Shown here: one piece after another, positions 471-60,477 of the stretch
How positions within the stretch are numbered: position 1 is the stretch's first letter
How the letters are laid out: each line of letters opens with the position of its first letter
Notes under the pieces: model-generated
What the model was told of the DNA's origin: nothing
What the model saw: the letters and a program-made list of their open reading frames with translations, nothing else
Database searches by the model: none
Assembly: GCA_046760425.1 (NCBI GenBank)
Contig: JBHIEC010000001.1
Coordinates: 325-64,324 of the forward strand
Direction of reading: 5' to 3'
DNA: 64,000 nt
DNA from: Anaerolineae bacterium
Lineage (GTDB): Bacteria; Chloroflexota; Anaerolineae; JBHIEC01
Translations under genes and position numbers: made by a program

Positions 471-1814
471 TCAGCGGTTAGTAACGTAAGGAATGGTCTG
501 AGGCCCCTCAGGCAGGACGCAGATGGTTGCTTCGGGGCCGTACTGGTCCATCAGTTGGGCCAGAGTCTCCTCGATGCTGTGGCAAGGGATGAGCAGGGCA
601 TCCCTGATCTCCTGATCGGAGAGATAGGACGTCTTGAGGTAGACGTCGGCCTTGAGCTGGATCTGGGCCTGGACCTGGGCCTCCCACTGGTCCTGCATCA
701 GGAAGCCGGGCGAGTGGATGATCTCCAGGAGCTCCCGGGGGCTGTCGGCCATGTGGAGGATGTTTTTGTATTGCCCGTGGTCGGGGATACCATCCCAGCA
801 CTCGGCGGCGGCGATGATGCTCCCGCCCTCCCTGACGATCTGGGCGGCGGCCGACATGCCTTTCACCGTCTGATAGAGGTTGAGGTCCAGGGGGTACCCG
901 GAGTTGGTGGTGATCACGATGTCGAAGGGGGCGGGCACGGGGGCCATGGCCGTGCTCCTCACGAACTCCACCCCCGCCCGATGGGCCTGCCAGACGTCGC
1001 CAGCGAAGACGCCTGTGATCTCCCTGTGTTTGTTGAGGGTCACGTTAAGCAGGAAGGTCGGCTCCGTCCTGGCCGCCACCTCGCGGATCTCCTCCCAGAT
1101 AGGATTGCCCTCCGTCACGCCCCAGGTAGCCCTGGGATGTCCGATCATCCTGGCATCGTGGTTGCCCAGGATGGCTCCTTCGTCGGCCAGGCCCGGGAGC
1201 ACCGCCTTGGGCCCGCCACTGAAGCCGGCGAAGAAGTGGGGCTCGATGAAGCCAGTCAGGATCTTAACTGAAGCCTCCATATACTCCCGGTTCAGGCTCA
1301 CCCGATGGCCGAAGCTGGTCTGACCCTTGAACGTGCTCACCCGTCCCGAGCCCTTCTCGAACCCGTGCGGCGCGACAGACGGGTGAGCACGTTCAACCAC
1401 AGGCACCAACCGGTCCTGGTCCCAGGCGTCGTGCTGCACCACCCGATAGCCCTCCAGGATGTCCGGCCCCAGCATCCCTGCCAGCTCCTCCTGGGTGTTG
1501 GGACGGTGAGTGCCCAGGGCGTTGATGAGCACGATGTTCTCCCGGGGGACGTGGTCCAGTTGGGCCAGGAGAACGGGCAGCACCCGGTGGTTGGGCATGG
1601 GGCGGGTGAGGTCGCTGAAGACCACGGCCACCGTGTCCTGGGGCCTGACCAGGTCGCGCAGGGGTGGCGTGCCCAGGGGGGCGCTCAGAGCCGCCTCGAT
1701 GGCCGCCGCTTCGTCGGGCAGACCCGCCGCGAACTTCGGCTCCAGCACGGTGACGTTCTTATCGGGCAGCTCAACCCATAACCCTTCTTTGCCATAAGCC
1801 AGCTTAACCCTCAT
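471..1814 (-). CDS. larA: Nickel-dependent lactate racemase LarA family protein (DUF2088)
   Basis: 447 aa ORF with LarA-family length and composition. Recognised by overall similarity only. Confidence 0.65.
   Translation of the reverse strand: MRVKLAYGKEGLWVELPDKNVTVLEPKFAAGLPDEAAAIEAALSAPLGTPPLRDLVRPQDTVAVVFSDLTRPMPNHRVLPVLLAQLDHVPRENIVLINALGTHRPNTQEELAGMLGPDILEGYRVVQHDAWDQDRLVPVVERAHPSVAPHGFEKGSGRVSTFKGQTSFGHRVSLNREYMEASVKILTGFIEPHFFAGFSGGPKAVLPGLADEGAILGNHDARMIGHPRATWGVTEGNPIWEEIREVAARTEPTFLLNVTLNKHREITGVFAGDVWQAHRAGVEFVRSTAMAPVPAPFDIVITTNSGYPLDLNLYQTVKGMSAAAQIVREGGSIIAAAECWDGIPDHGQYKNILHMADSPRELLEIIHSPGFLMQDQWEAQVQAQIQLKADVYLKTSYLSDQEIRDALLIPCHSIEETLAQLMDQYGPEATICVLPEGPQTIPYVTNR
1327..1395. 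repeat. Perfect 19-bp inverted repeat with a 31-bp spacer, lying in frame inside larA
   Basis: TTGAACGTGCTCACCCGTC ... GACGGGTGAGCACGTTCAA. Encodes roughly ERAHPSVAPHGFEKGSGRVST inside the LarA ORF. Confidence 0.7.
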
Positions 1815-6907: not shown

Positions 6908-7429
6908 ATGGAAATATTGCTTGGAGCAACTCTGATCTTTCTGGCCCGGCTGGTTAACGTGGCCATGGCCACGGTGCGCACGTTGCTCAGCATGCGGGGA
7001 CAGAAGTATCTGTCAGCGGCCATCGGCTTCTTCGAGGCCCTGATCTTCCTGCTGGCCATCAGCCAGGTGCTGCAGAACATCGGCAACATCTGGAACCTGC
7101 TGGGCTACTGCGGCGGCTTCGCCGCTGGCACCCTGGTAGGGATGGACATCGAAGAGAGGCTGGCTCTGGGCTATGTCATCGTGCGCGTCGTGGCCCGGCA
7201 CAATGGCCATGAGATCACCCAGGCCCTGCGTCAGGCTGGCTACGGGGTGACCGAATCCATCGGGAGGGGGCTGACTGGCAGGGTGCGCATCATTGAGACG
7301 GTGGTCAAACGCAAGGACACCGCAGCGGTCACGGATCTGATCAGCTACGTTGATGAGGCGGCCTTCATCACCGTCGAGGATGCCAGCCGAGTCCAGCGGG
7401 GCTACATCCAGCCCAGGCAGCGGACGTAG
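6908..7429 (+). CDS. DUF2179/UPF0316-like membrane protein
   Basis: 173 aa. Hydrophobic N-terminal half followed by a soluble C-terminal domain. Weak family assignment. Confidence 0.45.
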
Positions 7430-7449
7430 GCGAATGAAAAAGGCGTTCA

Positions 7450-7480
7450 CCCTTGCGAAGGTTCCGAACCTTCGCAAGGG
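7450..7480. repeat. Palindromic repeat family CCTTGCGAAGGTT..AACCTTCGCAAGG, copy a
   Basis: CCCTTGCGAAGGTTCCGAACCTTCGCAAGGG is a perfect palindrome. Related copies lie at 36404-36435 and 48478-48554. Confidence 0.7.
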
Positions 7481-7550
7481 TTGCCCAAGCTTGTTTCGAA
7501 AGAGAATCCGTGCTATAATTTGGCTGCACAGTGACGAAAGGAGGGGAGGG

Positions 7551-7742: not shown

Positions 7743-8665
7743 GGGTTCCGGCCGAAGCCGCTGCCCAGTTCCTGCAAGACCTGATGTAGATCCTGCGGCA
7801 ACTCAGCCGTAAGTTCGATGGGCTGGCCGCTGGAGGGTAGGCGGAAGCCCAGCTTCCAGGCGTGGAGGAATTGGCGCCCTAGGCCAAGGCGCTGCCTGCG
7901 GAAGCCGTAGACGGGGTCGCCGACCAGGGGATGGCCCAGAGAGGCGAAGTGGACGCGAACCTGATGGGTGCGCCCCGTCAAGGGATGGGCCTCGACCAGG
8001 GTGTACTCCCCCAGGTACTCCAACACGCGATACTCGGTCCTGGCCTCTCGACCGCCCCGGGCGGTTACGGCCATGCGCTTGCGCTGACGGGGGTGCCGCC
8101 CGATGGGCGCCTCGATCAGACCTCGCTTCGGTTCCAGCCGCCCCTCGACCAAAGCCAGGTAAACTTTCTTAACGTGCCGCCCTTTGAACTGCTGCTGCAG
8201 GCTCTGCTGGGCGGCATCGTTCTTGGCCACGATGATCAGGCCCGAGGTGTCCTTGTCCAGGCGATGGACGATACCCGGACGCAGGGTGCCGTTGATACCC
8301 CCCAGATCCGGGCAGTGAGCCAGGATGGCGTTGACCAGGGTGCCTCTGCGGTGGCCGTGGGAGGGATGGACCACCAGCCCCGACGGCTTGTTGACCACGA
8401 TCAGATCCTCGTCCTCGTAGACCACGTCCAGGGGGATGGCCTCGGGCTCCAGCTCCATCGCCTCCGGCGGCGGTACCTGCACCACGATCTCGTCGCCAGT
8501 CTCGACGCGGTAGCTGGCCTTGATCGCCCTGCCGTCTACCGTGACCCGCCCCTCCCTGATCAGCCTCTGGATCAAGGAGCGGGAGAGGTCGGGCACCACC
8601 TGGGCGACGTACTTGTCCACCCGTTCCCCGGGCTCAGTGGCGCGCAGTTGAATCACTCGTTCCAT
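7739..8665 (-). CDS. RluA/RluD-family 23S rRNA pseudouridine synthase
   Basis: S4 domain followed by the catalytic [10 protein letters not shown] motif. Start taken as MERVIQL. Confidence 0.8.
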
Positions 8666-9717: not shown

Positions 9718-12700
9718 TCAGCCCTCCTTCCTGCGCACGCCCAGGGTGATCCCCTGTCCCTCGATCTCGAAGGACCGGATGTGGGCTTCGGGCGGTGGCT
9801 CTTTGGCCACCAGATCTGTGGTCAGGGTCTCGCCTCTGATGTACTCGCCGTACTCGGCCATGACCTGGGCCAAAGCTCCCTCGGCCTGGTAGTAGGTGGT
9901 GATATGATCCTCGATGCGGAAGCCGGCCTTCTTGCGCATGATCTGGATGCGCCGCACCAGATCCCGGGCCAACCCCTCCCGCCGGAGGTCCTCGGTGATG
10001 GCCGTGGCCACCCCCACCAGGTAGCCGCCCTCTTCGGCCACGGCGTAGCCTTCCTTTTCCATCATCTCCACCTGCAGCTCCTCGGGCAGCAGTTCGATGA
10101 CTTGGTCGTCAACGGTGACCTCGACCGTCTGGCCGGCCTGGATCTGCTTGGCCAACAGGCTGGCGTCCAGAGCGGTGACGGCCGACTGGATCTGGGGCAA
10201 CAGGGCTCCGAATTTGGGCCCCAGGAGGGCCGGGATCGGCCGCACGCGATGCTCCACTATCTCCCCTTCGTCCTCGATGAAGCGCAGGGCCTTGACGTTC
10301 AGTTCGTCCAGCAGTTGGTCGGCCAGGGGTTCCAGGCCAGCTTGCTCCTCCGCCGAGCGCACCTTGATGAGGGCCTGGGACAGGGGCTGCCGCAGCTTGA
10401 TACCGGCTTTGTTGCGGGCAGCGTGGCCCAGGCTGGCCAGCCGCATGGCTAACCGCATGTCGGCCATCAGATCCTCGTCAATAAGGGATTCATCGGCTAC
10501 GGGGAAGTGGGAAAGATGCACGCTTTCGGGAGCAGAACTATCCACCGACGAGACCAGGTTGCGGTACATCTCCTCGGCCACAAAGGGGGTGAAGGGCGCC
10601 AGGAGCTTGCTCAGGGTGACCAGGCACTCGTAGAGGGTGGCGTAGGCAGCGTTCTTATCTTCGTCCACTTCCCCCCGACTGAAGTCGGGAGCTGGGCGCC
10701 AGAAGCGACGTCGGCTACGACGCACGTACCAGTTGGACAGGTCCTCCACGAAGTCCTGGATGGGCCGGGCGGCGCCGGTGACGTCGTAGTTGGCCAGGCC
10801 CGTGTCCACACGTTGGATCAGGGTGTGAAGCTCGCTCAGGACCCAACGATCGAGGGAACTAAGGGAACTGAAGGAACTCAGGGAACTCCCTTCAGTTCCT
10901 TGTGGGGGTGTCCAGCCGTCAATGTTCGCATAGGTCACGAAGAAGGCGTAGGTGTTCCACAGGGTGAGCATGAACTTGCGCACCACCTCCCCCACCAGCT
11001 CGACAGAGAAGCGGCGGTCATTGCCTGGCGGCGTGGCGGTGTAGAGGTACCAGCGCAGGGCATCGGCGCCGTGGATGTTCAGCACCGACCAGGGGTCAAC
11101 CACATTGCCCCGCGACTTGGACATCTTCTCCCCTTCGGCGTCCAGGATCAGTCCCAGGCAGACGCAGTTCAGGTAGCAGGGCTCGTCGAAGAGGAGGGTG
11201 GAGATGGCGTGCAGGCTGTAGAACCAGCCCCGCGTCTGGTCCACGGCCTCGCAGATGAAGTCGGCGGGGAACTGCTCGCGGAAGAGCTCCTGGTTCTCGA
11301 AGGGATAGTGCCACTGGGCCACAGGCATGGCTCCGGAGTCGAACCAGCAATCAATGACCTCGGGCACGCGGCGCATGGTTCCGCCGCAGCCCTCGCAGGG
11401 CCACGTGACGCGGTCCACGTAGGGGCGGTGGAGGTCCAGCCGTCCTAAGTCCGAAGTCCTACGTCCTGACCCTTCATTGATTTTGGACTTTGGACTTTGG
11501 ACTTTGGACTTCAGTTCCTCGATGCTCCCGATGCACTCCTGGTGGCGGCAGTTTTCACACTCCCAGATGGGCAGGGGCGTGCCCCAGTAGCGCTCCCGGC
11601 CCAGGGCCCAGTCCACGTTGTTGGCCAGCCAGTTGCCGAAGCGTCCCTCCTTGATGTGCTCCGGGTACCAGTTGATCTTCTCGTTGTTAGCCACCAGCCG
11701 ATCCTTGAGCCGTGTGGTCTCGATGTACCAGGTGGTCTTGGCGTAGTAGAGGAGGGGCGTGTCGCAGCGCCAGCAGAAGGGGTAGACGTGACGGTAGGTC
11801 CCCACTTTGTACATCAACCCCCGCCCCTTCAGCTCCTCGATGATCAGGGGATCGGCGTCCTTGACGAACAAGCCCCGCCAGGGGGTGACGGCATCAATGA
11901 AGGCCCCCTTGGGGTCCACGGTCTGCAGGATGGGCAGGTCGTACTCCTTGCCCATCTCCAGGTCCTCGGCGCCAAAGGCGGGGGCCATGTGCACCACCCC
12001 CGTGCCCTCCTTGGTGGTCACGAAGTCGGCGGCCACGACGTAGTAGGCCCCCTTGTCCACGGGCAGGAAGGTGTAGAGGGGCTGGTAATGCGTGCCCACC
12101 AGCTCTTTGCCCTTGAGGGTCCTGACCACCCGGTACTCGCCCCGCAGCGCTTCCTCCATGAGGGCTCGGGCCAGGATCAACTGCTCTCCCTCCTGCTCCA
12201 CAACGACGTAAGCCACCTCGGGGTGGACGGCCAGGGCCACGTTGCCGGGCAGGGTCCAGGGAGTGGTGGTCCAGACGAGAAAGTAGGTCCCGGGCTCGTC
12301 TCGCAGGGGGAATTTGACATAGACCGATGGGTCGTCGGTCTCGCGCATCGCGCCCGGGTAGTGCTGCTCGTGGGAGGAGAGCGGTGTGCCGCAGCGGGGG
12401 CAGTAGGGCACCACCTTGTAGCTCTGGTAGATCAGGTCTCGGTCCCAAAGCTGTTTGAGGATCCACCACACGGATTCGATGTACTCGTTGGTGAGGGTGA
12501 CGTAGGGATGCTCCATGTCAATCCAGAAGGCGATGCGATCCGTCATCCGCTCCCACTCCTCGACATAGCGGAAGACGCTCTCCCTGCACTTCTGGTTAAA
12601 CTCGGCGATGCCATACTCTTCGATCTCCCGCTTGCTGGAGAGGTCCAACTCCTTTTCGATCTCCAGCTCCACGGGGAGGCCATGGGTGTCCCAACCCGCG

Positions 12701-12945: not shown

Positions 12946-13212
12946 GGACGTTCCCTCCTAACGGCAGTGGATTATCGGCTACTGCTTTATCTATCTGAGA
13001 GCATTCGACAATAATGCCAGGCCTCGCAAGCGTGCTTCGGGCCTGTGGTACGAGCCCCCTCTCAGCTCCCGCGCAGGAGCACGCTTGCGACTGTCACACA
13101 ACGGATGTAAAACGGATAAGCGGATAGATCCTTGGTGGGCACATCCGTTTATCCGCTTGCATCCGATGTGTGACCGTCCCCTGTCAAATTACCGAAGCTA
13201 TCTATCTCCGTT

Positions 13213-15140: not shown

Positions 15141-15160
15141 GAATTCCCCTCTTAGCGGAA

Positions 15161-15194
15161 AAGCCCCCGTCCTTAGGGACGGGGGCTTTTCGCC
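15161..15194. terminator. Bidirectional rho-independent terminator
   Basis: AAAAGCCCCCGTCC ttag GGACGGGGGCTTTT. Perfect GC-rich stem flanked by A/T runs on both strands. Confidence 0.7.
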
Positions 15195-15777
15195 ACCCCC
15201 GCGGTACCACCCTATTTGGCATACCGCCCACTCCGTGGGGTACGTGTTCATACCCCCGTCCGTGTAACGGTGGACGAAACCGGCCAAGTCTACTTGCTTC
15301 GCACATTCGTAATCCGTAAACTCGTCACGAATCTACGAATTACGATCTACGAATGTACGAGCTTTCGGTTGGCGGCTCCGGAAGGATTTTCAGCGAGATC
15401 ATCGCGCCCGGCTCGCAGCCATATGTCGGGCTCTCTGTAGCGACTACCCTCGCCTACTCGTTTCCATCATCGCCTTTGGCTCGAATGTGACACTATTATG
15501 ACACAAAACGGCGGATTTGTCAAGGGCAAAAGCAAAGCCAACAGGCCCTCGTGCCTGCTGGCTCCCTTTTTTTCTGAGGCACGCCCCGCTGGGCCGTGTG
15601 CCGGGATGGGTTTTGAACCTGCAAGCGCAGGTGGGTGCCTACCGCCGGTTTTGCCCCCTAGGGGGCAGCCCCTTTAGAGATTGGCCCCTAAATTCAGGTG
15701 TTGGCTCAAAACTCTGTCGCGCATCACGTGCACAGCAGGGCGCCTCGCCTATATCATACCACAAAATGCCAAAAAAA

Positions 15778-25955: not shown

Positions 25956-26369
25956 TCAAGGCAGTTTCCAGCCCCTTTGATGAAGGGGACGCCCGTTGAC
26001 CAGCACCACTACGCCGGGCCAGAACAACCGCCTCTGCGGCTCGAAGATCACCTCCCCGAAACGGCTGCCTCTTCCTGTCTGGGTGCCCCCTGCTGTGGCC
26101 GGGAGAAAGGCGACCTCGTCTCCATCCTGGAGGGGGGCCTTCAGGCCACCGACCAGGCCGGCCTCACGCCCGGCAATGAGCACCCGCACGAAGGGTTTTA
26201 CCTCCCCCTCCTCGGTCAGCAGGTGATCTTTGAAGTCTGGAGCATGGCTGTCAGCCAGCCGTTGCAGCAGGTCGGCCAGGTGGGCCCCCTCGGCCAGTTG
26301 GACCGTTTCCTCTTTAATCCCGGCCAAGCCCCTCAGGTGTCCGAAGAAGCGAGTCTTGACCGTGATCAT
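25956..26369 (-). CDS. MoaD-like protein with a 42-aa extension after Gly-Gly
   Basis: MITVKTRFFGHL...GDEVAFLPATAGG, then TQTGRGSRFGEVIFEPQRRLFWPGVVVLVNGRPLHQRGWKLP. The extension tail resembles the start of another ThiS/MoaD strand (VLVNGRPL). Confidence 0.55.
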   Translation of the reverse strand: MITVKTRFFGHLRGLAGIKEETVQLAEGAHLADLLQRLADSHAPDFKDHLLTEEGEVKPFVRVLIAGREAGLVGGLKAPLQDGDEVAFLPATAGGTQTGRGSRFGEVIFEPQRRLFWPGVVVLVNGRPLHQRGWKLP

Positions 26370-36275: not shown

Positions 36276-36342
36276 GGCACCGCATAAATGACGGTGCCTG
36301 GGTCGTTTTTCACCCCCAGGCGGCGTGATTTCATCCGCCGCC
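36276..36342. repeat. Copy C of the three-hairpin intergenic repeat family
   Basis: GGCACCGCATAAATGACGGTGCC TGGGtcgtttttcaccCCCAGG CGGCGTGATTTCATCCGCCGCC. Confidence 0.6.
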
Positions 36343-36400
36343 GACCGCCACTGTAAAAGACGAAGACCTCAACACGAGGTCTCTCGCCATCGAAAGTCCG

Positions 36401-37381
36401 TTAGCCTTGCGAAGGTTCTCGAGCCTTCGCAAGGCTTTCGGGACCCCCACGGGCCTCCTTGCCCAGCAGGGCCTGGGCCGCAGAGTAGGGGTCCATCTGG
36501 CGCTCCACCACGCGCTCCACCAGGGCCTCGATCTCCGTCTGATCAATGCCGGCCAGGAGCCGTCCCATTAACTCGTGGCGCAGGATGTCCATGAGCTCCC
36601 CTCGGGCCCGCTCCCGCTCCCGCTGATGTCGTTGGCCGCTCGTCTCCAGATGGGTGGCATGCTCCTCGATGGCCTCGATCAAGGGCTCCACACCTTCTCC
36701 ACGCAGGGCGATGGTTTTCAGAACAGGTGGTCGCCAGTTCCTCGGCCGGGGGTCCAGATCGAGCATCATCCGCAGGACGGTCACGGCACGATCAGCCCCC
36801 TCCAGGTCGGCCTTGTTGACGGCGAAGATATCGGCGATTTCCAGGATGCCGGCTTTGATAGCCTGGATCTCGTCGCCCAGGCCGGGGGCGGTGACGACGA
36901 TGGTGGTGTGGGCCGCCTCGGCGATCTCCACCTCTGACTGGCCGGCCCCCACCGTCTCCACGAAGATCACCTGGTAGCCTGCCGCGTCCAGCACCTTGAC
37001 GGCGTCGCTGGTGGCCCGGGCCAAGCCTCCCAGGCTGCCCCGCGTGGCCATACTCCTGATGAAGACGCCGGGATCGCCGCTGAGGTCCTGCATGCGTACG
37101 CGGTCGCCCAGGATGGCCCCACCGGAGAAGGGGCTGGTGGGGTCAACGGCCACGATGCCCACCGTCTTCCCCCGTTGACGATAGGCCTTGGTCAGCTCGT
37201 TGACCAGGGTGCTCTTGCCCGTGCCCGAAGCGCCGGTGACGCCCACGATGTGGGCCCGGCCGGTGTGGGGGTAGAGGGCGGCCAGAGCCTGCCGGGCTAC
37301 AGAGCCCTCGTTCTCGGCGAGGGTGATCAGCCGGGCAATGGCCCGACGGTTGCCGGAGAGTACTTGCTCAACTAGGGTCAT
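36401..37381 (-). CDS. meaB: Methylmalonyl-CoA mutase-associated GTPase MeaB/ArgK
   Basis: P-loop GVTGASGTGKST. The palindromic repeat at 36404-36435 supplies its C-terminal residues and stop codon. Confidence 0.8.
   Translation of the reverse strand: MTLVEQVLSGNRRAIARLITLAENEGSVARQALAALYPHTGRAHIVGVTGASGTGKSTLVNELTKAYRQRGKTVGIVAVDPTSPFSGGAILGDRVRMQDLSGDPGVFIRSMATRGSLGGLARATSDAVKVLDAAGYQVIFVETVGAGQSEVEIAEAAHTTIVVTAPGLGDEIQAIKAGILEIADIFAVNKADLEGADRAVTVLRMMLDLDPRPRNWRPPVLKTIALRGEGVEPLIEAIEEHATHLETSGQRHQRERERARGELMDILRHELMGRLLAGIDQTEIEALVERVVERQMDPYSAAQALLGKEARGGPESLAKAREPSQG
36404..36435. repeat. Palindromic repeat family copy b, forming the 3' end of the meaB coding sequence
   Basis: GCCTTGCGAAGGTTCTCGAGCCTTCGCAAGGC. 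Confidence 0.65.
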
Positions 37382-37442
37382 GGTCAGAGTACACAAGTAG
37401 ACAAGTATAAGAGTGCACCAGGAGCATCCCCTGTCTACTTGT

Positions 37443-45404: not shown

Positions 45405-45600
45405 GCTAAGCCATTCGGATCGCCTCAAGTATCAGAAACCAGGTTTTTTTGTGCCCAAAAGCAGAGAAATTAGGGCTGTTTCAGTCACGTTCCCTGGCCA
45501 GAATCCCACCTTTTCAGAGTGGGAAAAAAACCTGGTTTCTTTGCGAACATGTTCAATCTAATATTGTCAAGATAGTTACGTCGTTCGGATCGCCTCAACC
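45405..45600. repeat. About 160-bp element with a ~20-bp internal inverted repeat, flanked by a 15-bp direct repeat at the 3' end of the response-regulator gene
   Basis: TTCGGATCGCCTCAA at 45408-45422 and again at 45586-45600. Internal AGAAACCAGGTTTTTTTG ... GAAAAAAACCTGGTTTCT. Confidence 0.55.
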
Positions 45601-46163: not shown

Positions 46164-46739
46164 TCAACCGAGCAGTCGCCGGCAGTCCGGGCAGTAACGT
46201 GTGATCACGCTGAGGGTGGGAGCGTACTCATCTCCCAACATGGCTCTTATCCGCCTCAGCATAGCTTCAGGCGCGATGGGGGCACCACAGGCCTCACATC
46301 GCCGATTCCGGTCCCGGTAGAGCGACACCCTTCCCTGCGGCAGGCGCTGAAGGTCTGTGGTCCGCTGCAGGTGCAGCACCCCGTTTTCTGCCTCGGGACA
46401 CCTGGGGAGGCATTGGCCGCAGGCCGTGCACAGGGCAGCATCAAAGGTGAGGGAGATGCCGCCCTCACCCCTTCCCCTCCATCCCCCCTTCCCCTCTCCC
46501 AATTCTGGGAAAAGGGAAGGGGTGAGGGCCAGCGCGCCGGTGGGACAGGCGGCCGCACACATTCCACAACCCGTGCAGCCGTCGGTCACTTCGATCACCC
46601 CGAAGGGGGAGTGGGGATGGGCCAAGGAAAACTCCGCTGCTGCCCCGTAGGCTTCCGCCAGGTGCAGCAACACTTCGACAGCAGCCTTTGGAGCAGAGGT
46701 GCTGGGGTGCGCTGCATTATGATCTGGCAGATTCACCAA
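46164..46739 (-). CDS. 4Fe-4S dicluster ferredoxin-domain protein
   Basis: CTGCGMCAAACP and CTACGQCLPRCP clusters, separated by an in-frame palindromic insertion. Confidence 0.7.
   Translation of the reverse strand: MVNLPDHNAAHPSTSAPKAAVEVLLHLAEAYGAAAEFSLAHPHSPFGVIEVTDGCTGCGMCAAACPTGALALTPSLFPELGEGKGGWRGRGEGGISLTFDAALCTACGQCLPRCPEAENGVLHLQRTTDLQRLPQGRVSLYRDRNRRCEACGAPIAPEAMLRRIRAMLGDEYAPTLSVITRYCPDCRRLLG
46462..46528. repeat. In-frame palindromic insertion in the ferredoxin gene
   Basis: CCCTCACCCCTTCCC ... GGGAAGGGGTGAGGG. Encodes GEGKGGWRGRGEGGISLT between the two iron-sulfur cluster motifs. Confidence 0.6.
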
Positions 46740-48456: not shown

Positions 48457-48477
48457 GATCCAACCTCCTCCAAGTAA

Positions 48478-48554
48478 AGCCTTGCGAAGGTTGGCCACAG
48501 CCCCAGGTGCCTGGTTGCGGTCTGCCAAGTCCGAGGAGGAAACCTTCGCAAGGC
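48478..48554. repeat. Palindromic repeat family copy c (long-loop version)
   Basis: AGCCTTGCGAAGGTT ggccacagccccaggtgcctggttgcggtctgccaagtccgaggaggaa AACCTTCGCAAGGCT. Confidence 0.65.
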
Positions 48555-48751
48555 TTCAGCTTGGAAACCGCATAAGTACTTTTAATTATAAACCCCTCTT
48601 TCCCCTACGTCTATGCCCCAATCTGGTCCTTTTGGCGCAAAAAAAGAGCTATCTTTGCGATAGCTCAAAAGGGCTATAAGGGCGGGCTTGAGTCACCCGA
48701 GGGGGCCACATCCTCCCAGAGATAAACCTCCCATATTTCGACCACCCCCCA

Positions 48752-55411: not shown

Positions 55412-56491
55412 TTAGCAGATCCTGGGCAGCATCTCCCCGGTCAGCATGTCCACCAGGCGCGTCCCACCGATCTCCGTCTGCATCAGGACCCTGCCCGCTG
55501 GCTCCGCCACCACCTGACCAATGGCCACCGCCCCCTGGCCATGGCGGGTCTTGCGCATGGCCGCCAGCACCGCCTCGGCATCCTCGGGGGCTACCATGGC
55601 CACCAGCTTGCCCTCGTTGGCCACGTAGAGGGGATCGTAGCCCAGCATCTCGCAGGCGGCGTGGACGGCGGGCCGCACGGGGATCTTCCCCTCCTCGATG
55701 CGGATGCCCACCTGGGACTGACGGGCGATCTCGTTCAGGGTGGTGGCCAGGCCGCCACGGGTGGGATCGCGCAGGACGTGGATATTGTGGCTGGCCTCCA
55801 GCATGGCCGCCACCAGGCCGTTGAGGGGGGCGATGTCGCTCTCTAGCTCCGTCTCAAAGCCCAACCCTTCCCGCTCGCTGAGGACGGCGATGCCATGGTC
55901 GCCGATGGGGCCGGAGAGGAGCACCACGTCGCCCACCTGGGCCCTGGTGCCGGAGATGTCCACCCCCGGCGGGACGAGGCCCACGCCGGCGGTGCTGATA
56001 AACAGCCCATCGGCTCCGCCCTGCTCCACCACCTTGGTGTCACCAGCCACGATCTGGATTCCCACCTCGGCTGCCGCGGCCCGCATGGACTCCACCACCC
56101 GCCGCAGGATGCCCACCGTCAACCCCTCCTCGATGACGAAGGCTGCCGAGAGGTAGAGGGGGGTGGCGCCGCTCATGGCCAGGTCATTCACCGTGCCGCA
56201 CACGGCCAGCCGTCCGATGTCGCCGCCGGGGAAGAAGAGCGGCTTGACCACGTGGGAGTCGGTGGTGAAAGCCAGGCGAAAGTCCGAGGTCAGGGGTCCA
56301 AAGTTCAAAGTCGAGGGGCCCCGGACTTCAGACTTCGGACTTTGGACTTTGGACATTTCCAGCACCGCCGAGTCGTCCAGGCGAGCCAGGGCGGGGTTAA
56401 CAAAGGGGGGCAGGAAAAGCTTCTCCACCAGCTCATGGCTCATCCTGCCGCCGCTGCCGTGGGCCAGGAGGATCTTGTCCCTATCCCTCAT
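55412..56491 (-). CDS. hypE: Hydrogenase maturation protein HypE, with an in-frame repeat insertion
   Basis: MRDRDKILLAHGSGG...TTDSHVV...LAVCGTVNDLAMSGATPL. The N-terminal region contains an inserted SKVQSPKSEVRGPSTLNFGPLTSDFRL segment. Confidence 0.85.
   Translation of the reverse strand: MRDRDKILLAHGSGGRMSHELVEKLFLPPFVNPALARLDDSAVLEMSKVQSPKSEVRGPSTLNFGPLTSDFRLAFTTDSHVVKPLFFPGGDIGRLAVCGTVNDLAMSGATPLYLSAAFVIEEGLTVGILRRVVESMRAAAAEVGIQIVAGDTKVVEQGGADGLFISTAGVGLVPPGVDISGTRAQVGDVVLLSGPIGDHGIAVLSEREGLGFETELESDIAPLNGLVAAMLEASHNIHVLRDPTRGGLATTLNEIARQSQVGIRIEEGKIPVRPAVHAACEMLGYDPLYVANEGKLVAMVAPEDAEAVLAAMRKTRHGQGAVAIGQVVAEPAGRVLMQTEIGGTRLVDMLTGEMLPRIC
56276..56359. repeat. GTCCAAAGTCC-type palindromic element inserted in frame in hypE
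   Basis: AGTCCGAGGTCAGGGGTCCAAAGTTCAAAGTCGAGGGGCCCCGGACTTCAGACTTCGGACTTTGGACTTTGGAC. Confidence 0.7.
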
Positions 56492-57906: not shown

Positions 57907-60477
57907 TTAGCCTCGGGCACAGCTGAAATGCCCGATCACCGCCTGCCCCAAAGCAATGCCTCCGTCGTTGGGCGGGACGAGGTGGTGGATGTAGACCTTA
58001 AAGCCCGCTCTCCGTAGCAGCTCCAAGGTCCTGGCCAGAAGGTAGACGTTCTGGAACACGCCACCGCTCAGGGCCACGCGGTTCAGGCCCTCCCGCTCCC
58101 GGATCAGACCGCACACCTCTGACACCATGTGAGCCACGGCGTTGTGAAACCTGGCGGCGATGATCGGCCGTTGGACGTTAGCTCGTAGATCAGCCACGAC
58201 GCCACGGATGACTGGAGCAGGATCCACAATCCATGGCCCATCCTGCATCCCTTCGGCAGCCCTTCGACGGAGCTCAGGGCCCCGCCTGTACCCCCATTCG
58301 TAGGCTTCCTCGACCCCCTCAGCGGCGATCATCTCCAGCTCAATGGCTGCCTGGGCCTCGTAGTTGACCATCTGGCGCAGGCCGATGAGGGCCGAGACGG
58401 CGTCGAAGAGGCGGCCCATGCTCGAGGTCAGGGGGGAATTGAGCCCGGCCTCCATCTGGTGCCAGGCCACCTTCTGCTCCAGCGGATCAAGCCCCTCCAT
58501 GGTGGGGAGATCGAGGTCCAAAGAGCCGTAGGCGTGACGGAGGTGGCTCCAGGCCATGCGGTAGGGCCGCCTGATAGCCGCCTCGCCGCCGGGCAGGGGC
58601 ACGTAGGCCAGGTGAGCAGCACGCCGGAAGTCGGTGTAGTCACAGACCAGGAACTCGCCGCCCCAGATACGACCATCTGCCCCGTAGCCAGTGCCATCGA
58701 AGGCCACGCCGATGACCGGCTCCTCCAACCCCTGCTCGGCCATGCAGGCAGCGATGTGGGCGTGGTGGTGCTGGACCGCGATTTGCGATTTGCGATTTGC
58801 GATTTGCGATTTGGCATACTTGGTGGCCAGGTACTCTGGGTGCATGTCATAGGCGATGATTTCCGGCTCGACGCGAAACAACCGTTTGAAATGCTCGATC
58901 ATGGCCTCGTAGGATACAAGGGTCTCGAAGTTCTCCATATTGCCGATGTGCTGGCTCAGGAAGGCGTAGTTCTCCTTGGTCAGGCAAAAGGTGTTCTTCA
59001 GTTCCGCCCCGCAGGCCAGGATCTGGCGCACCTGGAAGGGGAGGCGCACGGGATAGGGGGCGTAGCCCCGCGAGCGGCGGATGGGCAGCTCCTGTCCCTG
59101 GAAAACGCGCACCACCGAGTCGTCGCAGCGAGCGTGGATGTCCCGATCGTGGAGCAGGAAGTAGTCGGCCAGGCAGGCCAGTCGCTCCAGGGCTTCCCGG
59201 TTGTCGGTGGCGATGGGCTCCTCGGAATAGTTGCCGCTGGTCATCACCAGGGCAAGGAGAGACGAGTCCCTCTCGTCACTCATCACTCGTTCCTCGTTAC
59301 TCAACAGCAAGTAATGGAGCGGCGTGTAGGGCAGCATGACCCCCAGATACTTGTTGCCCGGCGCTACCCACTCCGAGATGGGCGAGTCAGGCCGCTCCCG
59401 GAGCAAGACGATGGGGCGCTCCCGCGACTCCAGCAGCCGGCCTTCCTCCTCGTTGACGTAGCAGTACCTCTTCACCGTCTCCAGGTCGTAGGACATGATG
59501 GCGAAAGGTTTGTCCACCCGCCCCTTGCGCTCTCGCAGCCGTCGCACCGCCTCGTCGTTGGTGGCGTCGCAGGCCAGATGGAAACCTCCGAGACCCTTCA
59601 CGGCCACGATAGCCCCCTGGGTCAGGAGCTGCCGCGCCCTCTCGATAGGATCGTCCGCATAGTCCAAAGTCCCAAGTCCAGAGACTTCGGCGAGCCTTCG
59701 GGCTGAGGCCCCTTCGTCAGGCTCGGGGCAAGCTCTCAAGGCTTCGCCGTCGAGGCTCAGCCGAACGGCCGAAGGCTCAGTCGAGCCGCTCACCGTCGAA
59801 GCCTCGGTCGAGCCGTCCGAAGCCAACAGATTTTGACTTTGGACCTTGGACTTTGGGCTTTGAGCCAACCACACCTTCGGGCCGCACTCTGGACAGGCAT
59901 TCGGTTGGGCGTGAAAACGACGGTCGAGAGGATCATCGTACTCAGCCTGGCAGACAGGGCACATGACGAAGGGGCGCATGGTGGTCTTGGGACGATCGTA
60001 GGGGATGTCCTGGATGATAGTGAAGCGGGGGCCGCAGTTGGTGCAGTTGGTGAAGGGGTAACGGTAGCGCCGATCCCGGGGGTCGAACAGTTCCCGCAGG
60101 CAGTCAGGGCAGGTGCAGATGTCAGGCGAGATGGGCTGGAACCTCCCCTCCTGGGCCACGCTGTGGCGGATCTCGAAGTGGTCGTAGCCGTTGGGGGGGT
60201 GATCGGATGACGTGACCTTCTCGATGCGAGCCAGGGGCGGGGCCTCGGCCTGCAGATCGAACAGGAACCGATCCAGGACCTCGCGCCGGCCCTCGACCTC
60301 AATATCCACGCCCGCTGAGGTGTTGCACACCCAGCCCGTCAGCCCGTATCTGTCGGCCAGTTGGTAGACGAAGGGGCGGAAACCCACCCCCTGCACCACG
60401 CCGGTGACGTGGACCTTTCTCAGGATAAGGTCAGCTCTCTCCGCCAAAGGTGTACCCTCGTCTGCTCCAGCAGCCAT
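57907..60477 (-). CDS. hypF: Carbamoyltransferase HypF, with two in-frame repeat insertions
   Basis: Acylphosphatase domain, two CxxC-x18-CxxC zinc fingers, YrdC-like and Kae1-like domains. About 70 inserted residues lie between the second zinc finger and the YrdC domain; SQIANRKSQIA is inserted further on. Confidence 0.9.
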   Translation of the reverse strand: MAAGADEGTPLAERADLILRKVHVTGVVQGVGFRPFVYQLADRYGLTGWVCNTSAGVDIEVEGRREVLDRFLFDLQAEAPPLARIEKVTSSDHPPNGYDHFEIRHSVAQEGRFQPISPDICTCPDCLRELFDPRDRRYRYPFTNCTNCGPRFTIIQDIPYDRPKTTMRPFVMCPVCQAEYDDPLDRRFHAQPNACPECGPKVWLAQSPKSKVQSQNLLASDGSTEASTVSGSTEPSAVRLSLDGEALRACPEPDEGASARRLAEVSGLGTLDYADDPIERARQLLTQGAIVAVKGLGGFHLACDATNDEAVRRLRERKGRVDKPFAIMSYDLETVKRYCYVNEEEGRLLESRERPIVLLRERPDSPISEWVAPGNKYLGVMLPYTPLHYLLLSNEERVMSDERDSSLLALVMTSGNYSEEPIATDNREALERLACLADYFLLHDRDIHARCDDSVVRVFQGQELPIRRSRGYAPYPVRLPFQVRQILACGAELKNTFCLTKENYAFLSQHIGNMENFETLVSYEAMIEHFKRLFRVEPEIIAYDMHPEYLATKYAKSQIANRKSQIAVQHHHAHIAACMAEQGLEEPVIGVAFDGTGYGADGRIWGGEFLVCDYTDFRRAAHLAYVPLPGGEAAIRRPYRMAWSHLRHAYGSLDLDLPTMEGLDPLEQKVAWHQMEAGLNSPLTSSMGRLFDAVSALIGLRQMVNYEAQAAIELEMIAAEGVEEAYEWGYRRGPELRRRAAEGMQDGPWIVDPAPVIRGVVADLRANVQRPIIAARFHNAVAHMVSEVCGLIREREGLNRVALSGGVFQNVYLLARTLELLRRAGFKVYIHHLVPPNDGGIALGQAVIGHFSCARG
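58778..58812. repeat. 7-bp tandem repeat GCGATTT x5, in frame in hypF
   Basis: Five perfect units. Encodes KSQIANRKSQIA on the minus strand. Confidence 0.75.
59661..59866. repeat. Composite in-frame insertion in hypF: GTCCAAAGTCC-type inverted ends enclosing a copy of the 38188-38302 palindromic element
   Basis: AGTCCAAAGTCCCAAGTCCAGAGACTTCGG...GAGCCTTCGGGCTGAGG...GGCCGAAGGCTCA...GATTTTGACTTTGGACCTTGGACTTTGGGCTTTGAGCC. Confidence 0.7.

Follow-up and report, generated by a model that had tools for sequence, protein, structure and literature searches.

The stretch of DNA analysed here, referred to as the window, comprises 64,000 nucleotides (nt) of contig JBHIEC010000001.1 (positions 325 to 64,324 of the forward strand; assembly GCA_046760425.1), has a G+C content of about 63%, and comes from a metagenome-assembled genome (MAG) of an uncultured Anaerolineae bacterium of the phylum Chloroflexota. 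Four of its genes contain hairpin-forming inverted repeats, namely, larA, ileS, meaB, and an open reading frame (ORF) for a ferredoxin-like protein. For IleRS, MeaB, and the ferredoxin-like protein, the NCBI entries MFQ6057264.1, MFQ6057286.1, and MFQ6057294.1, respectively, all from one contig, show 100% identity, and the larA product is MFQ6057251.1. In the original prediction, which was made from the letters of this stretch, it was proposed that at least four unrelated palindrome families are colonising coding DNA in frame. The inverted repeats were verified at all four sites, each on the coding (minus) strand of an intact ORF, and no sequence relatedness was found among the four hairpins, in agreement with that proposal; the 19-bp larA repeat, which had been placed at 1327-1395, is there but its true end is 1396. 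The features at the four sites, in window coordinates, are as follows.

471 to 1814, minus strand: larA, the gene for a nickel-dependent lactate racemase of 447 amino acids; an intact ORF, with homologs that have PF09861/PF21113.
1326 to 1397, minus strand: insertion in larA of 72 nt or 24 codons, residues 140-163 (VERAHPSVAPHGFEKGSGRVSTFK), defined by ortholog and DNA alignment.
10864 to 10899, minus strand: ileS site A, an 11-bp inverted repeat in an (AGTTCCYTN)n tract, a tandem repeat coding for (Ser-Ser-Leu/Phe)n, defined by protein and codon alignment.
36347 to 36449, minus strand: 3'-terminal meaB insertion of about 103 nt, consisting of a palindrome (36398-36441) and then a terminator-like hairpin (36363-36383), defined by alignment with the related contig L015.
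46461 to 46529, minus strand: perfect inverted repeat in a Fer4 dicluster ORF (46164-46739), 16 bp with a polypurine/polypyrimidine spacer of 37 nt, covering an insertion of about 16 codons.

Perfect inverted repeats with arms of at least 12 nt and a spacer of at most 100 nt occurred 13 times in the window compared to 0.83 expected from dinucleotide-preserving shuffles, and those with arms of at least 16 nt occurred 5 times compared to 0.03 in dinucleotide shuffles. The window genome is rich in small hairpin-forming sequences, and the RNA folds of the four elements exceeded those of shuffled controls in stability, with z values of -4.3 to -5.2. The arms of the hairpins under study are TTGAACGTGCTCACCCGTC, GCCCTCACCCCTTCCC, AGCCTTGCGAAGGTT, and AGAAACCAGGTTTTT. 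No Rfam family accounts for any of the hairpins, the only matches being sub-threshold ones to generic miRNA-like hairpins, and no description of hairpin elements of this type in Anaerolineae was found in the literature searched. When the host proteins were aligned with their orthologs, the additions in larA, the ferredoxin-like ORF, and meaB were lineage-specific, as the original prediction implied, whereas most of the ileS tract was shared with close orthologs. We read the flagged additions as young and specific to the lineage, in genes that are conserved otherwise, with at least two different origins, and they fall into three classes: a dispersed palindrome resembling repetitive extragenic palindromic (REP) sequences or their hairpin-forming doublets (REPINs) in meaB, singleton hairpins resembling REPINs or transposable elements of the miniature inverted-repeat type (MITEs) in larA and the ferredoxin-like ORF, and a locally generated tract in ileS. 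The reading that we favor, to which we assign a probability of about 0.6, is that mobile hairpin elements together with local repeat instability gave rise to these additions and that selection filtered them to frame-preserving insertions.

In larA, TTGAACGTGCTCACCCGTC at 1327-1345 pairs perfectly with 1378-1396, giving 19 bp with a 32-nt spacer, and the insert is made up of this 70-nt hairpin plus a possible 2-nt GG duplication. The LarA protein is about 25 residues longer than nearly all of its closest homologs (422 amino acids), and residues 140-163 lie opposite a gap in 16 of the 16 aligned orthologs including P0001, whose identity to the window LarA is 85% by BLASTP and 90% in this alignment. 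The window protein keeps the residues at which the aligned orthologs do not vary. In the DNA alignment with the nearest relative, L001, there is a clean 72-nt gap: the empty site reads CCCGT GGGCGAG, with the junction after CCCGT, the filled site in the window reads CCTGT GG, then the 70-nt hairpin, then GG GTCAG, and both arms as well as the spacer are missing from L001. Alignment with solved LarA structures splits at the insert, with query residues 128 to 161 set against chain residues 131 to 140, and in an AlphaFold model residues 143-162 form a coil with a predicted local distance difference test (pLDDT) score below 50, the whole model being of moderate quality (mean pLDDT 68.7). The RNA fold of the larA hairpin has a predicted energy of -45.3 kcal/mol (z -5.2). 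In each orientation 1 of the 3 frames of the 70-nt unit is open, and the actual position corresponds to that open frame. The larA insertion is thus both real and young.

Three further observations concern LarA. An ortholog from Anaerolineae, P0041, has its own 8-residue insertion, AACPELGR, in a different loop (alignment columns 237-244), which shows that small lineage-specific LarA insertions are not confined to the window genome. The C-terminal extension of P0001 (GEHGAHPPDRP at its end) was considered as a product of the same element as the larA hairpin and was rejected because there is no DNA similarity. The 90% protein cluster that includes the larA product also lists unrelated helix-turn-helix fragments of 37-43 amino acids, and this was taken as a clustering artefact.

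In the ferredoxin-like ORF, GCCCTCACCCCTTCCC at 46461-46476 pairs with 46514-46529 over 16 bp, and the hairpin is flanked by the two cluster motifs, CTGCGMCAAACP and CTACGQCLPRCP, just as had been predicted. The insertion of about 16 codons, at roughly 46476-46523, encodes TPSLFPELGEGKGGWR, and in 14 of the 14 aligned homologs (identity at most 57%) a 16-residue gap faces this segment between both Fe-S cluster motifs. The Pfam profile Fer4_7 places residues 55-116 (62 residues) on profile positions 2-50 (49 positions). A Logan contig of 1.6 kb from run SRR29324586 (L016), which is an independent assembly, is identical across the hairpin, and this counts against an assembly artefact, at least at this site. 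That the hairpins are assembly or sequencing artefacts of the MAG is extremely unlikely. The source is indeed metagenome-assembled, and the larA hairpin lacks confirmation from a second source, since looking up its exact protein gave no other contig, and the same look-up for IleRS came back empty; against this, apart from the Logan contig, the ORFs are all intact with internal inserts of 72, 48, and 18 nt in larA, the ferredoxin-like ORF, and ileS, respectively, the hairpins are shorter than typical reads, and related hairpin arrays are present in other, independently assembled Anaerolineae genomes, as described below for ileS.

In meaB the repeat lies at the 3' end: 36403-36415 (AGCCTTGCGAAGG) is paired with 36424-36436, and the palindrome encodes the C-terminal residues ESLAKAREPSQG and the TAA stop of the ORF at 36401-37396. 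MeaB orthologs that are 86-89% identical stop 11-15 residues earlier, ending in GKEGR, REGVRGS, or KEVRYGGG, and the window MeaB carries on with a new tail, GGPESLAKAREPSQG, the tail and its stop codon being supplied by the insert. In the DNA alignment the insert is missing from L015, whose protein is 89% identical, and the ancestral end of the gene, GGCGGCGGATGA, with the old stop survives at 36332-36343, after which the intergenic sequence resumes. The terminator-like hairpin within the insert has a T-run, as seen in the terminator scan and in the fold. The palindrome CCTTGCGAAGG was found in three copies in the window, one at the 3' end of meaB and the following two.

7449 to 7481, intergenic, no strand assigned: second copy, with 16-bp arms and a 1-nt spacer, 20 nt past the stop of the gene at 6908-7429.
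48477 to 48556, intergenic, no strand assigned: third copy, with arms 48 nt apart as in a REPIN-like doublet, upstream of an NrfD-like gene.

There are 6 exact CCTTGCGAAGG arms in the window and, with one 1-mismatch site, 7 matches compared to 1.8 expected, and no member of this palindrome family was found in 42 kb from the closest relatives. Going by these comparisons, the meaB palindrome is shown to be a copy of a real dispersed REP/REPIN-like family, one that landed on the gene end and supplied a new stop. That the palindrome provides the last residues and the stop of MeaB had been recognised correctly; the meaB case is, however, a 3'-terminal insertion with its own stop and not an internal in-frame insertion as had been described. 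Likewise, the term family holds for the CCTTGCGAAGG palindrome, with its three copies, and for the GTCCAAAGTCC heptamers, whereas the larA, ferredoxin, and ileS palindromes are singletons in the window.

The meaB insert also brings in the question of function. If the hairpins had been selected for mRNA processing, mRNA stability, translational pausing, or beneficial peptide loops, the perfect complementarity of the arms and the very stable predicted structures would be expected, and the terminator-like hairpin may now be where the meaB transcript ends. We nevertheless consider such selection quite improbable: the inserts are missing from orthologs that are 85-90% identical, the search of Rfam returned generic sub-threshold hairpins, the larA insert is modelled as a disordered coil, and a very recent insertion would equally give perfect arms. 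As peptides, the inserts are probably disordered loops of a passive kind that add no function.

The ileS repeat pairs 10864-10874 (GGAACTGAAGG) with 10889-10899 (CCTTCAGTTCC). The closest IleRS orthologs, P0122 (84% identical) and P0123 (81%), already have SSLSSLSSL or SSLSSFSSL, which corresponds to three AGTTCCCTN units. The codon alignment with L012 and L014 shows four 9-nt units plus GGA ACT GAA GG in the window gene, that is, 18 extra nt consisting of one additional 9-nt unit and a 9-nt inverted copy (plus-strand CCTTCAGTT, 10889-10897). At site A the window thus combines (AGTTCCYTN)4 with an inverted 11-mer, and the relatives have 3 units with the inverted copy absent. As a reverse complement, the new GGAACTGAAGG matches exactly the CCTTCAGTTCC that was already present 14 nt downstream, and few random window positions give a local match this long (P about 0.008). 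As this arm copies adjacent host sequence, a local-template origin was retained for site A, which is best read as slippage, by which a unit was gained, plus an inverted duplication copied from a template, in a linker that is hypervariable, and not as a foreign element. The original prediction had regarded this palindrome as a colonising element and had named residues shared by orthologs as evidence to the contrary; this evidence is present in part, as SSLSSxSSL is shared by the closest orthologs and just 18 nt are new.

The IleRS of two other Anaerolineae genomes, L017 (GCA_030611885.1, another genus) and L018, with identities to the window protein of 70-71% by BLASTP and 72% in the alignment, have other short-unit hairpin arrays at the site A loop and also at a second loop, where the window has heptamers of the sequence GTCCAAA. 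These arrays and the heptamer hairpins are located as follows.

L017, 11453-11525 and 12056-12135: in-frame IleRS hairpin arrays.
L018, 11440-11480 and 12015-12110: in-frame IleRS hairpin arrays.
Window, 59662-59858 (HypF), 56296-56354 (HypE-like), and 11442-11509 (ileS): GTCCAAA heptamer hairpins with highly different spacers.

The same two IleRS surface loops look like they have been occupied recurrently and independently across genomes. A far-reaching extension of this is that an active process, common to the class Anaerolineae, repeatedly builds sequence-unique perfect hairpins, either arrays of short units or stem-loops of 70 nt, in surface loops of conserved proteins, a speculation that we think is unlikely to hold; such a process could be palindrome genesis by template switching, or the hairpins could be mobilised by an unrecognised system that is specific to them and has many arm variants of low copy number. 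The units of the IleRS arrays in L017 and L018 are of 7-8 nt (CAAATCC/ATTGGTC, GTAGATTC, CAAAGCT, and GGTTGGA), all unlike the window units. The GTCCAAA heptamer (TTGGACTTTGGAC) is also present at L017:7815, adjoining a AGAAACCAGG hairpin. The HypF hairpin in the window encloses about 150 nt packed with nested GC-rich palindromes (GGCTTCGGACGGCTCGACCGAGGCTTCG among them), suggesting nested insertions in this copy.

For the larA and ferredoxin hairpins the favored reading takes a mobile origin, which is suggested by the architecture of each element. Several results weigh against it. Pfam domains for transposases were not found in the 40 window ORFs that were scanned. The GG duplication seen in larA, when L001 is compared with the window, is only 2 nt, which is too short to tell from chance. 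The larA hairpin does not recur in the window even when 3 mismatches are allowed, and its 19-mer arm was searched in collections that do not include the source genome with the following outcome: 3 single-arm matches and no partner arm in 596 Gb of species-representative genomes, 5 contigs, one with two direct copies, and no partner arm in the JGI metagenomes, and zero matches in viral contigs. The matches come from unrelated organisms (contigs of actinobacteria, Acidisphaera, and probably eukaryotes) and were read as chance because they are unpartnered and because, by our own arithmetic, about 4 would be expected by chance. The copy number of the larA hairpin and of the ferredoxin hairpin is one in all available data, and membership of the larA hairpin in a repeat family is unsupported outside the source genome. 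A second copy of the ferredoxin hairpin was found neither in the window nor in viral contigs, and the boundaries of this insertion are approximate: the homologs are at most 57% identical and the 69-nt repeat exceeds the 48-nt gap, so that the outer bases of the arms overlap host codons.

These results would also suit a different explanation, in which all the hairpins, those of larA and the ferredoxin-like ORF included, were made locally de novo by slippage, template switching, or hairpin-primed repair. It would explain unique sequences without transposition, as the larA and ferredoxin hairpins are single everywhere searched, it is realised at ileS site A, where the arm repeats neighbouring host sequence in inverted form, and the different hairpin arrays in the two IleRS loops of three Anaerolineae genomes point to a recurrent local process. 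For larA and the ferredoxin-like ORF, however, local templates were not borne out. A 9-mer shared between the larA insert and its flank, GCTCACCCG (1296-1304), and an 8-mer shared in the same manner at the ferredoxin insert, GGTGAGGG (46446-46453), were tried as traces of such templates and rejected, since the insert-flank matches were no better than those at random window positions (P = 0.18 and 0.21, respectively). Moreover, the arms and the spacer of the larA hairpin are missing from the empty site of the closest ortholog, and template switching alone could hardly yield a 70-nt unit without a local template. We therefore regard local de novo formation of all the hairpins as rather unlikely.

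What makes a mobile origin of the larA and ferredoxin hairpins plausible is a comparison with an intergenic hairpin of the window at 45434-45540. A 15-nt arm of this hairpin, AGAAACCAGGTTTTT, is identical in L017 at 7834-7933, where the hairpin has a different 70-nt spacer and unrelated neighbours. As the arm is common to two genera, hairpin elements with conserved arms and variable spacers circulate in Anaerolineae, and hairpins such as those of larA and the ferredoxin-like ORF may have come from elements of this kind.

The course of events that we propose would be as follows. Small non-autonomous palindromic elements, REP/REPIN-like or MITE-like, would insert into genes. In meaB, as the alignments show, the dispersed palindrome and the terminator-like hairpin were inserted, overwriting the last codons and bringing a new stop. 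In larA and the ferredoxin-like ORF, hairpin elements with perfect arms of 16-19 bp and a spacer of 32-37 nt would have been inserted, their mobile origin being deduced from their structure. In ileS, a 9-nt coding tandem repeat would have gained one unit and a 9-nt inverted copy of neighbouring sequence would have been added; replication slippage and template switching are the likeliest mechanisms, as judged from the sequence relationships. Coding insertions would persist only if they keep the frame, have no stop codon, and lie in a tolerant surface loop or at the C-terminus. Such a selection filter would explain why all of the insertions look in-frame, and the in-frame state is therefore no evidence of a special insertion mechanism. 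What stands, at the four sites, of the proposed four families colonising coding DNA in frame is one dispersed family; the remainder are singletons and a local ileS tract, with the frame being what selection left over.

The rest of the window holds other hairpins and features. The neighbouring genes are of the housekeeping and respiratory kind, including mnmE, aspS, secA, prs, three genes for aldehyde:ferredoxin oxidoreductases, and genes for multihaem cytochromes, and further neighbours are genes for a molybdopterin oxidoreductase, hyp genes, and genes for a NiFe hydrogenase. The intergenic hairpin at 45434-45540 has perfect 17-nt arms (AGAAACCAGGTTTTTTT) with a 73-nt spacer, and each arm is itself a small palindrome, AGAAAC-CAG-GTTTYT; the hairpin may belong to a cross-genus REPIN/MITE-like family or may be a paired protein-binding site. 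This hairpin and about 45 nt of AT-rich sequence are flanked by a 15-nt direct repeat, TTCGGATCGCCTCAA, at 45415-45429 and 45584-45598. For an insert of about 170 nt, this repeat could represent either a long target duplication or the footprint of recombination. Three more intergenic inverted repeats, each in a single copy within the window and resembling the flagged hairpins in architecture, were seen at 2654-2724 (18-nt arms, 35-nt spacer), at 13024-13090 (13-nt arms, 41-nt spacer), and, following the latter, at about 13100-13160, upstream of ileS. A T-box leader at 15172-15479 and a 6S RNA gene at 15579-15744, both on the minus strand with the 6S gene immediately upstream of the leader, were also found; the leader precedes an operon for a GNAT acetyltransferase, an AlaX-like protein, a Fic protein, and ileS, and its terminator is the inverted repeat at 15158-15191. 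Finally, in a ThiS/MoaD-like ORF of 137 amino acids (25956-26369, minus strand) the ThiS domain ends near residue 95, and about 40 residues extend beyond it at the C-terminus. The usual end of a ThiS-family protein is Gly-Gly, and this extension could be another 3'-end alteration or the result of a wrongly extended ORF.

Hairpin additions within genes are already known from Rickettsia and other bacteria and what is new here is the lineage: in-frame palindromic insertions in housekeeping genes, best known in Rickettsia, extend to free-living Chloroflexota. Our comparison also indicates that coding palindromes that look alike reach genes by different routes, namely, as dispersed REP-like elements, as singleton hairpin inserts, and through local repeat instability. 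In practical terms, the hairpin inserts lengthen LarA, IleRS, MeaB, and HypE/F, can disturb alignments, and may pass for domain insertions. If it is true genome-wide, the repeated targeting of the IleRS loops across genera would be a tractable case of hairpin DNA making new peptide segments that are filtered by selection, and a class-wide hairpin process, if true, would be a natural system for the birth of disordered protein segments from selfish or mutational hairpins.

Membership of these hairpins in the families of Rickettsia palindromic elements (RPEs), REPs/REPINs, or MITEs is not established, and the likenesses and differences are as follows. RPEs (Ogata et al. 2000, as reviewed in PMC10969869) are in-frame palindromes in unrelated housekeeping genes, about 100-150 bp long, and they occur as multi-copy families in each of which the encoded peptide is conserved (PMC10969869). 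The larA and ferredoxin inserts are like RPEs in that they are in-frame, hairpin-forming, absent from orthologs, part of the host ORF, and presumably tolerated at the surface; unlike RPEs, these hairpins are about 70 nt long, no second copy was detected in the window or in the searched collections, and their hosts are free-living Chloroflexota and not an intracellular alphaproteobacterium. REPs are palindromes of 20-40 nt that recur at many sites, for the most part extragenic. They overlap ORF ends and also occur inside ORFs (Di Nocera et al.; PMC3733652) and are marked by a GTAG or CGTC tetranucleotide at one end (PMC3733652); REPINs are treated in PMC3116915 and PMC3337134. The CCTTGCGAAGG palindrome resembles them in being short, GC-rich, dispersed, and mostly intergenic or at gene ends, with one spacer-split copy like a REPIN doublet, and differs in being documented at three copies only, with no terminal tag: neither GTAG nor CGTC was found at the flanks of the three copies. 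An IS200/IS605-type tyrosine transposase associated with REPs (RAYT) was likewise not among the 40 scanned ORFs, in which there is no transposase domain. MITEs of bacteria that form in-frame fusions include Coxiella QMITE1, ERIC, and the Anabaena MITEs, and MITEs are typically 100-400 bp long and multi-copy, with an identifiable parent insertion sequence (PMC5896051, PMC10969869). The larA hairpin (19-bp arms, 32 nt between them) and the ferredoxin hairpin (16-bp arms, 37 nt) share with MITEs the terminal inverted repeats, a short non-coding core, and the in-frame survival within ORFs; the GG at larA may be a short target duplication, although 2 nt do not tell it from chance. They differ in that neither multiple copies nor a parent insertion sequence was found, the source genome lying outside the searched collections. 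For the ileS tracts, the closest likeness is to another kind of element. Cyanobacteria reportedly have short tandemly repeated heptamers (STRR-type) as well as small dispersed repeats. Like these, the ileS tracts are arrays of 7-9-nt units and their inverted counterparts that form hairpins, are coding, and vary between genomes; they differ in phylum and in unit sequences, and arrays of the ileS type recur at the same two IleRS loops in three genomes.

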